Of a stretch of 64,000 nucleotides of DNA, positions 16,595-43,388 are shown one piece after another. Each line of letters opens with the position of its first letter. Within the stretch, counting starts at the first letter, position 1. Source of the DNA: Podarcis gaigeae (lineage: Eukaryota); NCBI GenBank assembly GCA_964106915.2, contig OZ066928.1; one strand, 5' to 3'. The translations under genes and the position numbers were made by a program. Under the pieces are notes generated by a model that worked only from the letters and a program-made list of their open reading frames with translations, searched no databases and was not told where the DNA came from.

Positions 16595-16695
16595 CAGTCC
16601 CAGAATCTGTAAAACGCTAAAGTGGTAGATAAACATCAGTCCAGTGGATAATAAAGCCCACCAGAAATTCCAAGATGGCTCAGGAGTGTAGACAC
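16595..16695 (-). CDS. TMEM164: TMEM164 coding exon (101 nt)
   Basis: Acceptor ...ttctaatag|, donor |gtgagt. Translates (G)[34 protein letters not shown] 302-nt intron separates it from the last exon. Confidence 0.95.
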
Positions 16696-26795: not shown

Positions 26796-26874
26796 CTCTT
26801 TTATTCAGTAGATAGATGGGAACAATGTACAACATGACATGCTGAATGTAATAGACCTCCAATTCAAAAGGTAG
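26796..26874 (-). CDS. TMEM164: TMEM164 coding exon (79 nt), contains the catalytic His motif
   Basis: Acceptor ...ttctttccccag|, donor |gtatgt. Translates [26 protein letters not shown](G). Confidence 0.95.
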
Positions 26875-27002
26875 CTGGGGAAAGAAGGAAAAGAAAGCAG
26901 TAAGTACTATGCATAAATTAACATAACACTATAGATGGAGTCCTGCTGGATCAGGCAAAAGGCCCATCTAGTCAAGTACTCTAGTCTCACATGGGCCAAC
27001 CA

Positions 27003-28146
27003 AAACAAAAAAAATTCCTTCCAGTAGCACCTTAAAGACCAACTAAGTTAGTTCTTGGTATGAGCTTTCGTGTGCATGCACACTTCTTCAGATACACTGA
27101 AACAGAAGTTTCCAGACCCTTCTATATAGTGAGAAGGTGGGGAGGGGTATTACTCAGAAGGGTGGTGGGAATGGGTGATTGGCAGATAGCTGTGATGAGC
27201 CTGTTGACGACTCTTAACGACTGCAATAGGTCTTACAGGAAAAAGCAAGGGGTGAGAAGGTGAAAAATGGCTTTGTCATGTATAATGAGATAAGAATCCA
27301 ATGTCTTTGTCTCTCCATGGTTTTAAGTTTGGTGATAAATTGCAATTCAGCAGCTTCTCTTTCCAGTCTATTTCTGAAATTCCTTTGTAGTAAAACAGCT
27401 ACTTTGAGATCTTGTATAGAATGTCCTGGGAGATTGAAGTGTTCTCCTACTGGTTTCTCTGTCTTGTGATTCCTGATGTCAGATTTATGTCCGTTTATTC
27501 TTTGGCGTAAGGTCTGGCCTGTTTGTCCAATATAGAGAGCTGAAGGACACTGATGGCATTTGATGGCATACACAATGTTAGACGATGAGCAATTAAATAG
27601 TCCCAAGATGGTATGTGTGATGTTGTTGGGGCCAGTAATGGTGTTGTCCGGGTGTATGTGGCAGCAAAGTTGGCATCTGGGTTTATTGCAGGCTCTGGTG
27701 CCAGTGTCCGTGTTAGGTCTGGTTGTAGTATTATTGTGGGTTAGGAGTTGTTTAAGATTGGGTGGCTGTCTGTAGGCAATGAAAGGTCTTCCTCCCAGAG
27801 CTTGAGAAAGAGAACTGTCATTGTCCAGGAGAGGTTGTAGATCTCTGATGATGCGTTGTACTGTTTTAACTTGGGAGCTGTATGTGATGACTAGAGGTGT
27901 TCTGTTATTTTCTTTTTTGGGTCTGTCTTGCAGCATGTTTTCTCTGGGTATCAGTCTGGCTCTGTTGATCTGTTGTCTAACTTCATCTGCTGGGTATTTT
28001 AGTTCTAAAAGGGTTTGCTGTAGATCTCTTAGGTGAGAGTCTCTGTCTGTAGAATTGGAACAGATGCGGCTGTAACGTAGTGCCTGGCTATATACAATGG
28101 ACTGTTTGGTATGTTTGGGATGGTAGCTAGAGGCATGTAGATATGT
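27003..28146 (-). mobile_element. 5'-truncated Penelope-like retroelement (Neptune-type): RT C-terminus, Zn-finger linker, GIY-YIG endonuclease, 3' pseudo-LTR
   Basis: ORF 27214-28197 contains YLHASSYHPKHTKQSIVYSQALRYSRICS, CNKPRCQLC and NIVYAIKC...LYIGQTGQTLRQRINGHKSDI. 11-bp flanking duplication tgggccaacca (26992-27002 / 28147-28157). Inserted into a CR1 3' fragment. A frameshift near the C-terminus puts KDIGFLSHYT* in another frame. Confidence 0.93.
27058..27095 (-). ncRNA. minimal type-I hammerhead ribozyme motif in the Penelope 3' end
   Basis: Minus strand reads GUAU-CUGAAGA-A-GUGUG(CAUG)CACAC-GAAA-GCUC/AUAC. Conserved core, 5-bp stem II, 4-bp stem I, and palindromic AGCU in place of stem III. 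Confidence 0.8.
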
Positions 28147-29498
28147 TGGGCCAACCAGATGTCGTTGGGAAGCCCACAAGAAGGACCTGAGGGCCATAGT
28201 TCTCTTCCCACCAGTGACTCTCAGCAGCTAGTATTCAGAAGCATCCTGCCATCATTTATTTACAAAACTGCATCTGAGAATAGCCATTCAGGAGATATTT
28301 CAGCTCAACTTTCTATGCATTCATAGAGCGTGTAAAAATTAACATGGCAGCCTCCTTCAGTATTAAGAAATCACACAACAGGAAAACAGATCTGAAATGC
28401 TTTCCAGTTCAAAGCTTCACCAGTGCTCTTGGGTGACTAGTTCAAGGGTCACTGTGGACTCAAATCCTGGCACAAGAGAAGCAAAAGCTTTTGAGTCTTC
28501 AATCCCCAGCTGAGGATATAGATACTAATAGGTACTGATTGTCAAGCCTTAGGGCAAAAACACACAATTATGGTCATGGGCTTATTCACTCACTTAACAG
28601 GTTGTGTGAGCCATGTAATATGTGAGATAATAACCCATATAATTACTGTGGTGTAAAGTACTGCTATTCCTAGTGCATTTCAGGTTCATCATTAATGTTT
28701 CCTGGTTGTCACTGGTACTAGAAAATGTTCGGAAGTGAGCAATTGCGACTCACAGCCTCTGATTTGCAGCACATAGCCCATAATGCATTTGGTCTTTTCT
28801 TCTTCTTCTGAAAGTGCACTGAACAACAATCACAGCCTCCCACTAATTATGGAGCCAATTTTTCAAGCTTTGTTACCCTTAACTTTGGTTTGCAAGGAGT
28901 TCAGCTGTTTAGATTTCATGCTGAATTGACTGGTTAAATTGACATTTGCAAGAGCATCAGATGTTTACTTGCAAAGCTTTGCTTGTTTTTTTCTTGGATC
29001 TTCAAGCTTTGTTCTTGACTTACCATTCCTGGTTTGTTTGAAGCAAAAGAAATCATGGGCCCAGGTTCAGATGTAATGCTTGAGCCAAACTATGGCTTAG
29101 CTCCTGGTACGGCTGAGTGATAGATCAATATATCGGCAAAAACTGGTTTGAAGCCCATATCATTATATCAGTTTCATAATTTTTGATCTGGCAATGTATC
29201 ACAAATCATGATGTATGTGCGCGTATGTGCACGCTATGCAAAAATCACAACACAGGAAAAACCGTGAAGCCAACCGTCCTTATTTCAGACATTGTGATAT
29301 ATCGGTATACTGTAATGTTTAGCTGGTGCAGGAGCAGGTTTAGGTGAAAGGACTGTGTGATCATTTCTAGTCCTAAAAATAAATGCCTTCTTTCTAAATA
29401 TACCGAGGCTCCCTATGCAAACATTTGCATCTGGCTCTGGTTGGTAACTCTCAAAGCTACAGGAAAAATCAAAGTAGGTCCATACAGCCTGAAGTCTA

Positions 29499-29872
29499 AA
29501 AGGTAAAGGTAAAAGGTACCCCTGCCCGTACGGGCCAGTCTTGCCAGACTCTGGGGTTGGTGCGCCCATCTCATTCAAGAGGCCGGGGGCCAGCGCTGTC
29601 CGGAGACACTTCCGGGTCACGTGGCCAGCGTGACGAAGCTGCTCTGGCCAGAGCCAGAGCCAGAGCCGCACACGGAAACGCCGTTTACCTTCCCGCTAGT
29701 AAGCGGTCCCTATTTATCTACTTGCACCCAGGGGTGCTTTCGAACTGCTAGGTTGGCAGGCGCTGGGACCGAGCAACGGGAGCGCACCCCGCCGCGGGGA
29801 TTCGAACCGCCGACCTTTCGATTGGCAAGCCCTAGGCGCTGAGGCTTTTACCCACAGCGCCACCTGTGTCCC
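29499..29872 (-). mobile_element. Sauria SINE, subfamily B
   Basis: Diagnostic ggtacccctgcccgtacgggccagtc and agcgctgtccggagacacttcc; TSD gcctgaagtcta. Confidence 0.9.
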
Positions 29873-32007
29873 CACAGTGCCTGAAGTCTACCCACCCCTA
29901 AATTACACTACTTAGAAAGGGTCTTAAATAAACAGCAAATCCTCTCAAAAACATAAAGAAATCTTCACAAACTGCTAAATATACACTTTGGCCATCTGTT
30001 TTAAAAAGTTTTATAAAAGGCCCCCATGGCGACATGGGGGCCTTTTATGACACATGTTGTTAAGCAAGGTGACAATTTAATGCCACCAGAATCCCAGATT
30101 TGTCTTTCTGGAAAGATTTAATACCACAACATTTGCTAGTTTAATCCTCATTGCTATCTTAGTCACATGTCTGTATTTAGATATATCGTAAGTATATCTC
30201 CCAGGGATATTCTTAATATGCAGCTGACAGGTATTATGCTCTGTTTGGATGTATTTTGTTACCTATTATTATTTATTAAAGATAATGATGAAAAAACCTT
30301 GCACAGAAAACATTTTTAAACTGTGATTTTTTTGAACAGTTTTAGGTAAAAAGCAAACACACAAAGTATTCATTTCTGACAGGGTTCCTCTACTGTTTTA
30401 CATAACCACCACAAAGGGAACACTTCTGAAAAATGATTCTGCTGCAACAACATGTAGAACAAAAACAATCTTTCATAGAATGAGAATGGTTTGTTCTCCA
30501 GTTCGGCTAACAAAACAAGTATGTTTCCTGGTACACCGCCGGCATCTGTCTAAACAACATAATTAAAACAAGGAATAGCCAACACCCACTATAATCTAAG
30601 ATGAAAAAGGAAGAACATCACGTCTATCAAATTAAACACAGCCATACAGAGTAAACAGTAGCACATTTATTTCATGTATTCATGACACCATGTGTGACAG
30701 GAAACAAGGGCACAAGGGCCTGAGTAGGCCCCTGATGAAGGAAGCCAAAGGCTCATCTACTCCAGAACTCTGTTCTGACAGTAGCCAATCACTAAGATTA
30801 GTGCAACATCACTCTCCCCACTTGTGAATCCCAGGAAACTGTATTCGGCAGCAGTATCCTAGTTTAAGAACAAGTACCTGGGTTCACAAGAGCAAAAATT
30901 AATACGCTCAGTTCCTTCTCTTACAGCCAGGGCTGGTGGACCCATGAGGTAAAGTGAGATGCAGTGACAGATGGGGGTTAGTTGAAACCCAGACTTGGAT
31001 GCTCTCAATCAGCACCTCAGGGCCACAGGAGTTTACATGCCAACCTAGCCATTACAGAGCCATACTATCATTAATGCTACTAATGGTTTTGAGAGCACAA
31101 AGCACTTTGCCTACATTATCATAGTACTCCTTGCAACCTATTATGCTAAGCATTTCTGCCCCATATAATGCAGCTGGGGAGATACTTGGGCTGAGAGAGA
31201 GAATTAGGCTGCCTAATAAGTTTATTACAAGATTAAAGCAAGATTTCAACTGGGGCTATTCCCATTCTTCACTCTTAGCCATATTTGACAATATTGTAAG
31301 CAGCCTGTCAACCCTGAGGAAGGCCAAGAGAGGCAAACAAGGTAAGACAGGAGCAATCCCTGAGAATCTCTTAACTATATGCATTATGTATCAAGGACTG
31401 AAGGAAATGGTGAGTGCGGGGGGGGGGGGGGGAAACCTGGGTGTTCTGGATTTTCCAGTGTTGATATTGCATCATCCTAAGAAGCACAGCCAGCCATCTA
31501 AGAGGAAGCCATGAATGTGCAGATTAGGAGCAGCTTAGTCAAAACCACAGTTGCTGTTTATTAGTCCAGGCACATTATTGCACAAGTATGACTATTCTTA
31601 CCAGTAAATTGTTACAAAACATTTTCCTCCACATAGTGAAGTTTGAACGCCATAGAAATCCTGGACACAAGGGTCGCATTGACTGATGACCAAAAAATAA
31701 ACAAAATATGCCAAATCTGATCCCGTGGCCAGCAACTTCGTCAGACAATTACATACATGGCATTTGCCATACAAGGATACATGTAGAGATAAAGGGTGAT
31801 AATTCAACTGTCATACCCGGAGTAAATCCACTTAATTCAATGGACTTACCCCTAAAGGCTGTTAACCTCACTTACCTGTGAATAAACCCCACTGAATTCA
31901 ACAGGACATACTTCTGTGTAAATGTGGTTAGGGTTGTGCTGTAAGAGCCAAGCACTGAATGCACACATGCTAACATGTGAGAGAGTGAGGCTCCCACACT
32001 GTGCATC

Positions 32008-32096: not shown

Positions 32097-32450
32097 TTAT
32101 TTATTTAGAGTATTTGTAATATGCTCTTCAGCCAAAAAGGCTCCCAAGAGTGGCTTACATACAGTCAAAGCAAGGCAGCCCCTACCTGAAGGCTTGCAAT
32201 CTAAATACAATTTTGTATGTGTGTTGAAATCCCAACACACATACGAAAAGGGACAGGGAAGAAAGAAAATCGAAACCAAAACTCAGAGCCCAATTCCTAA
32301 ACAGGTCTTCCCAGCTAGAACAGGTCAGGGGCAGGAGGTGCCTGGAGGAGCTGGGCTACCAGCATCTTGTGATGCTTAAAAGTTAAACATGCTTTGATAG
32401 AGGAAGCACCCACAGTTTAACTACCATTTAAGTTTTACTACAGGCTCTAA

Positions 32451-32814
32451 GGGACACAGGTGGCGCTGTGGGTTAAAGCCTCAGCGCCTAGGATTTGCCG
32501 ATCGAAAGGTCGGCGGTTCGAATCCCTGCGGCGGGGTGCGCTCCCGCTGCTCGGTCCCAGCGCCTGCCAACCTAGCAGTTCGAAAGCACCTCCGGGTGCA
32601 AGTAGATAAATAGGGACCGCTTACCAGCGGGAAGTTAAACAGCGTTTCCGTGTGCGGCTCTGGCTCGCCAGATGCAGCTTTGTCACGCTGGCCACGTGAC
32701 CCGGAAGTGTCTCCGGACAGCGCTGGCCCCTGGCCTCTTGAGTGAGATGGGCGCACAACCCCAGAGTCTGTCAAGACTGGCCCGCACGGGCAGGGGTACC
32801 TTTACCTTTACCTT
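32451..32814 (+). mobile_element. Sauria SINE, subfamily B
   Basis: Full head-to-tail copy; perfect TSD tacaggctctaa. Confidence 0.92.

Positions 32815-43232: not shown

Positions 43233-43388
<156 letters not shown>

Follow-up and report, generated by a model that had tools for sequence, protein, structure and literature searches.

The TMEM164 locus and its inserted element

The 64,000-nucleotide stretch of Podarcis gaigeae DNA analyzed here (the window) carries exons of TMEM164 on its minus strand. A 79-nt exon at 26796-26874 (minus strand, as are all features below) corresponds to human TMEM164 amino acids 170 to 194 (E 1.3e-8) and includes the equivalents of Y177 and H181; the Pfam TMEM164 model also aligned here (E 0.0017), below its cut-off. 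Y177 and H181 are termed metal-chelating, and C123 the catalytic residue, in a cryo-EM paper (PMC12830759). The exon is preceded by an acceptor (26875-26896) with 20 of 20 pyrimidines followed by an AG at 26876-26875, where the initial annotation had placed it. The peptide of an upstream 67-nt exon (43305-43371) agrees with human amino acids 146 to 158, and the intron between the two (43304-26875) is 16,430 nt long. A downstream 101-nt exon is predicted at 16595-16695 from its size, AG/GT borders and open frame, and the first coding exon lies near 64.2 kb. The 16,430-nt intron also holds two copies of a GC-rich SINE-like repeat (29500-29890 and about 32450-32750), which we take to resemble Sauria-SINE.

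Positions 27001-28146 of this intron are occupied by a 5'-truncated Penelope-like retroelement (PLE) of 1,146 bp. Of 42 family matches listed, 30 loci were retrieved and, with the window copy set aside, 29 were aligned; all 29 share 97.7-98.2% identity with the window copy. These siblings are the best-scoring copies, so the whole family is somewhat more diverse. The window copy comprises the 3' part of the ORF and the 3' pseudo-LTR without an optional tail of ~34 nt, and family homology stops at 27001. It is flanked by a target-site duplication of 9-11 bp, the edges of which are ambiguous by microhomology (5' copy, 28147-28157; 3' copy, 26992-27002). Compared with the majority of the aligned copies, it differs by 8 substitutions and one 11-bp deletion near the ORF end (27311-27312), which is absent from 29 of 29 other copies. 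Insertion has split an older, abundant repeat fragment (26938-26991 and 28158-28214), and both of its flanks attract many other contigs.

The ORF remnant retains part of an endonuclease (EN) domain of the GIY-YIG type (27430-27576; Pfam PF01541, E 2.7e-5, over the cut-off) and a zinc-finger-like CX4CXXC linker (27664-27690), which recurs in the longer sibling copy L055. A CX2-5CXXC linker between reverse transcriptase (RT) and EN is the hallmark of Neptune/Nematis (PMC8557442), and the linker at 27690-27664 conforms to it, which points to Neptune (or Nematis). In L055, RVT_1 (E 9.4e-11) and GIY-YIG lie within one 706-aa frame, the arrangement of EN+ PLEs (a single ORF, RT and then C-terminal GIY-YIG); the window copy has the C-terminal part only. 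The insertions likewise take the form expected of EN+ elements, with 12 of the 29 copies tailed and an inverted arm flagged in 19 of 30 loci. No full-length pLTR-ORF-pLTR unit was present among the five longer copies fetched, all of which are 5' truncated, with a shared length of up to 2.1 kb. On this anatomy, the carrier is best classified as a young, 5'-truncated Neptune-type Penelope-like retrotransposon. In L010 and the 11 other tailed copies, the tail (past the equivalent of 27001) has an ATG near its start in good context; this ATG may be the real ORF start of the family.

A minimal hammerhead in the pseudo-LTR

The minus strand from 27095 to 27058 reads as an intact minimal type-I hammerhead, sense to TMEM164, as the initial annotation had proposed. 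Its 4-bp stem I is formed by a 5' arm at 27095-27092 and a 3' arm at 27061-27058. Between them lie the core box CUGAAGA (27091-27085), an extra A after A9 (27084), a 5-bp stem II with the loop CAUG (27083-27079/27074-27070), the core box GAAA (27069-27066) and GCUC (27065-27062), and cleavage is predicted between 27062 and 27061. In place of stem III there is a palindromic AGCU (27066-27063), and the G10.1-C11.1 pair is G27083-C27070. The motif thus has the CUGANGA, GAAA and UH boxes and stems I and II of a minimal hammerhead ribozyme (min-HHR), together with the unpaired base between positions 9 and 10.1, the G10.1-C11.1 pair and the palindromic 15.2-16.2 segment. It also occupies the pseudo-LTR position of a min-HHR, 3' of the GIY-YIG ORF and 60 nt from the 3' end of the element. 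The earlier assignment to a Penelope-like minimal hammerhead with a palindromic stem III is therefore borne out by both the sequence and the anatomy of the element. The ATG in loop II opens 9 codons only.

We considered whether the motif might be a chance match. Bare CUGANGA..GAAA boxes do occur in the window at chance level (6 matches versus 5.98 expected), and an Rfam scan of the window gave 0 matches at the gathering score. The Rfam result is uninformative, because min-HHRs may have no Rfam model. A descriptor requiring stems I and II gave one match in the window and no match of any kind in 100 shuffles, and that match lies at a known PLE position. The hammerhead search proposed at the outset thus succeeded with the stem-based descriptor but not with Rfam. 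Together, the shuffles, the sibling alignment and the 9,021 exact genomic copies described below refute a chance origin, the probability of which is vanishingly small.

Stem II and its loop (27070-27083) form a perfect 14-nt palindrome. According to the folding model, pairing of this palindrome between two copies would be preferred over stem III and might either restrain or scaffold ribozyme dimers.

The family is abundant and young

The 38-mer was found in 9,021 exact copies in the genome (4,512 forward and 4,509 reverse; 0 for a control pattern), a density of about 6 per Mb in 1.51 Gb. A search of the window and the 150 kb upstream of it gave no second family copy within the gene as mapped from its first coding exon onward. 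The description of a lone copy therefore holds for the mapped gene but not for the genome. The only other family hits in the searched stretch were two short fold-back stubs upstream of TMEM164, at ~127,600-127,780 (L045) and ~206,090-206,270 (L053); the first coding exon, at about 64.2 kb, is far from both. Assuming that 30-50% of the genome is intronic, we estimate 1,350-2,250 sense-intronic family copies; under assumed intron sizes, some 70-190 of them would lie no more than 250 nt from an acceptor. Another, older PLE family is the probable source of two hammerhead-like matches (G000:C3:38194834 and C21:50729047), whose stem II differs and whose core is CUGAUGA.

Given the window copy's identity of about 98% to its siblings, the core would be expected to have stayed intact even in the absence of selection; at 0.7% divergence, the probability that all 38 nt remain intact is about 0.76. 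Per-site variation in the 29 copies was similarly low in the hammerhead motif (0.36%) and in the ORF (0.51%). The CpG formed by C11.1 and G12 has been lost in about 13 of the first 100 copies listed (counted by eye), and the window copy keeps it, with a perfect core. Among the 100 listed of 120 stem-II variants, we saw no compensatory change, nearly all being uncompensated point changes; this covariation search was uninformative because the family is too young. From these comparisons, the decay of the hammerhead in the family looks neutral. There was no sign of selection on the window hammerhead, whose conservation does not exceed that of the remainder of the element copy.

The insertion is recent and lineage restricted

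The insertion site was compared in contigs from eight sequencing runs. The empty site is represented by organisms D (X7) and E (X11), in whose contigs 26993 is joined to 28149, skipping 1,155 bp with 9 letters shared; in both, the flanks of the split repeat rejoin. Contigs of organisms A (X2, possibly the source sample, and X3, a different sample) and B (X4) cross the 5' junction and extend about 30 nt into the element. A flank contig of organism C (X5) stops aligning at 28149, with 44 letters to spare, like those of D and E; as its joint was not in the rows listed, C was not counted as empty. In organisms F and G, whose runs we guess to be RNA, contigs cover the element family and leave the insertion site undecided. 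No accumulation of ends was listed for any of these runs, although contigs do not reveal RNA ends. No empty allele was present among the joints listed for organisms A and B, in which the insertion may be fixed. Since the site is empty in D and E, the insertion is recent and lineage restricted.

These results bear on the notion that the motif is a domesticated ribozyme, comparable to the conserved amniote intronic hammerheads or to CPEB3. An intronic position, the sense orientation and an intact core are what such a ribozyme would present, but the motif has no monomer stem III and is no more conserved than the rest of its copy, and conservation at the orthologous site, which domestication would predict, was absent from D and E. 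We regard domestication as having next to no likelihood, as it is largely refuted by the empty orthologous sites.

Family-wide 5' ends point to a probably capped, uncut template

We examined where family copies begin by searching with patterns in which two mismatching bases had to precede a chosen position. Copies whose 5' end falls on 27095, where stem I begins, numbered 2,929. There were 76 with a 5' end at the cut site and 43 with one at the control position, which lies 5 nt upstream of that site, so that cut-site starts were 1.8-fold above the one control position. A G precedes the 27095 start in 75 of the first 100 copies listed (by eye) and in at least 1,661 overall, and a T occupies that position in 22 of 22 distinct copies that continue upstream. 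Reading of the cap as an extra G is known from LINE-1 work. The 5' ends, the extra G and the upstream T thus place the inferred transcription start of the family at 27095. A TATA-like box of the pseudo-LTR (27123-27128), with a putative promoter role, lies 33 nt before this start.

Among the first 30 cut-site loci, the start is joined to other element sequence, inverted or on the same strand, in 21, of which 8 show stem-I microhomology at the joint; the remaining 9 were unflagged, one of them having an inverted tail by eye. In the fold-backs L062, L064, L066, L076, L077, L084, L085 and L087, the arms are joined through the 4-bp complementarity of stem I, and such stem-I-joined fold-backs therefore mimic a 5' end at the cleavage site. 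A target duplication of at least 7 bp abutted the extra G in 1 of 30 loci, where the G lies within the target; most junctions have filler or inverted arms, so an untemplated origin of the G is putative.

The preponderance of starts at 27095 (2,929 versus 76 at the cut site) argues for a template RNA that probably carried a cap and had not been cut. From these genomic records we infer that the element transcript is capped, starts at stem I and is copied uncut to its end, the cap being read as an extra G, and that cleavage in the element's own particle is rare or leaves no trace. Cut RNA might be degraded, leaving no genomic record. A literature search returned no report of an extra G or a cap at Penelope retrotransposon 5' ends, which is weak evidence of absence. 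The family-wide 5' ends support, from insertion records, the in vitro result that PLEs copy uncut RNA, and they suggest a place for the ribozyme at the transcript's capped 5' end.

Predicted folding, partners and timing

ViennaRNA was used, without proteins or tertiary contacts, to estimate how often the hammerhead adopts a competent fold (stems I and II formed, with the core and AGCU free). For the bare 38-mer the probability was 0.12. Two short folding windows gave 0.15, in host context, and 0.0014; a 140-nt folding window gave 3e-6, and intron contexts of 375 and 625 nt gave about 0.007. A trans dimer joined by stem III alone (four base pairs) had a predicted energy of -3.9 kcal/mol, corresponding to a Kd of about 2 mM, a rough value without tertiary or protein terms. 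Cofolding of two copies favored a 14-bp stem-II duplex (-30.6 kcal/mol) and left stem III incomplete. The expectation that a single copy would be weak as a monomer is in keeping, by analogy, with the published behavior of min-HHRs: a single motif showed no activity, and dimers and trimers cleaved weakly (Cervera and De la Pena 2014, PMC4209133).

The predicted cut lies 187 nt 5' of the acceptor of the Y177/H181 exon, close to the ~190 nt given initially. It is not at the branch point, near which it had been placed: the closest branch-point-like sites (26918 and 26901) are some 140-160 nt further downstream. At 2-4.1 kb/min, Pol II would cover the 187 nt from cut to acceptor in 3-6 s, compared with 2.5-3 min for CPEB3, and a cut so close to the acceptor leaves less time to act before the exon has been transcribed. 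Completion of splicing may come later than Pol II transit to the acceptor.

Consequences for TMEM164

The motif is the standard hammerhead of the inserted element's 3' pseudo-LTR and very probably a passenger without activity, removed together with the TMEM164 intron during splicing. The copy would have been made by target-primed reverse transcription from the proximal of two internal sites, which would leave it without a tail and ending 60 nt after the cut site. In the pre-mRNA, the hammerhead is predicted to be rarely in a competent fold and without a stem III partner, and the copy lacks the stretch of downstream RNA on which protein-assisted activity depended in the Anolis element. Together, these features would make cleavage too slow to matter before the exon, 187 nt downstream, has been made and spliced. 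Several points count against the passenger interpretation: the core is perfect, including its CpG, and conditional activity is real for the PLE hammerhead class. The possible fixation in A and B, the 1.8-fold excess of cut-site starts over the control, the fold probability of 0.15 in one host-context folding window, the different clade of the Anolis element and the published effects of other intronic hammerheads (see below) also weigh on this side.

That conditional activity underlies the alternative that the hammerhead is switched on in trans, by a partner RNA completing stem III or by the element protein, and cuts TMEM164 pre-mRNA. An intact core lies on the sense strand, dimer-dependent and protein-assisted cleavage has been published for the class (PMC4209133, PMC11167929), partner RNA could come from at least 9,021 copies, and the putative RNA runs of organisms F and G have contigs covering the element family. 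Pairing in trans is nevertheless predicted to be poor (a Kd of about 2 mM, with the -30.6 kcal/mol stem-II duplex competing), and the template RNA of the family was probably mostly uncut even though it was presumably protein bound. The window copy ends at +95 from stem I, and the extension activity of the Anolis element PAc, which is of a different clade, needed RNA to about +172 of its ORF, the protein site being imprecisely mapped (PMC11167929). Pol II would be at the acceptor within 3-6 s, and the insertion is recent and lineage restricted. We consider trans activation at TMEM164 very unlikely. The conditional regulatory system put forward in the initial annotation is thus unsupported, given at least 9,021 identical copies, a recent insertion, no sign of selection and a trans dimer of ~2 mM.

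A slight effect on TMEM164 might instead arise from the pseudo-LTR promoter (start 27095, directed toward the exon at 26874-26796) or from a cryptic acceptor, without involvement of the ribozyme. The TATA-like box and inferred start site are intact, on the sense strand and 221 nt upstream of the exon, and Penelope has its own promoter in Drosophila, although that promoter is TATA-less and internal and so differs in architecture (PMC2377424). AGs contributed by the element have 12-16 pyrimidines in 20, compared with 20 of 20 at the true acceptor; splicing to the AG at 27097 would lengthen the exon by 222 nt and bring in an early stop. Methylation silencing of young copies is also likely, judging from the CpG decay. 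Such an effect is therefore unlikely.

Where a Neptune element is expressed (for example, in the germ line), its protein or RNA could trans-activate one to two thousand or so sense-intronic hammerheads and lower host mRNA, a scenario we hold to be highly improbable. If the conditional model were true, a transposon would regulate host pre-mRNA through a ribozyme distributed by the element itself, and PLE hammerheads would acquire a host-side cost. The TMEM164 insertion, filled in two species and empty in two relatives, is a ready natural test of trans-activation. As it stands, the passenger interpretation makes the locus of little consequence, as one more copy of a described retroelement motif.

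Comparison with known systems

The motif resembles the min-HHRs of metazoan PLEs, reptiles included, in its short stem I, the extra base between 9 and 10.1, the G10.1-C11.1 pair, the palindromic 15.2-16.2 segment, its pLTR position and its occurrence as thousands of mostly single copies (PMC4209133). Unlike the published examples, the family in the TMEM164 intron is very young and near uniform, and its 5-bp stem II and loop make up a perfect 14-nt palindrome. The function of PLE hammerheads is described as still open (PMC8557442).

The closest experimental counterpart is PAc, a Poseidon element of Anolis carolinensis. [quoted passage not shown] The available text of Frangieh et al. (2024, PMC11167929) reports that the PAc hammerhead cleaved only with protein, that no RNA-seq ends fell at the cut site and that catalytic hammerhead mutants inserted normally. 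PAc has two reverse-transcription start sites (PMC11167929); similarly, the family studied here has two 3' end classes split by the optional tail (12 of 29 copies tailed). Unlike PAc, this family has the CX2-5CXXC linker of Neptune/Nematis.

Intronic ribozymes have been reported with different outcomes for the host. Slow ones left splicing unchanged (Fong 2009, as cited in PMC10919898). In zebrafish, gene knockdown is achieved with a fast hammerhead placed in an intron (PMC11856399), and Xenopus introns show a depletion of hammerhead retrozymes (bioRxiv 10.64898/2026.07.22.740005). Our literature search found no paper combining TMEM164 and a ribozyme. The HDV-like ribozyme of CPEB3 is likewise a self-cleaving motif in a vertebrate intron and is proposed to compete with splicing; it is conserved, cleaves as a monomer with a half-life of 2-3 min and is separated from the following exon by 9,931 nt (PMC10919898). 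In contrast, the TMEM164-intron motif is recent, is expected to be partner dependent and has its acceptor 187 nt away. The intronic hammerheads of amniotes mentioned above also lie on host pre-mRNA, but they are old and conserved, whereas the TMEM164-intron motif is absent from close relatives and has no monomer stem III.
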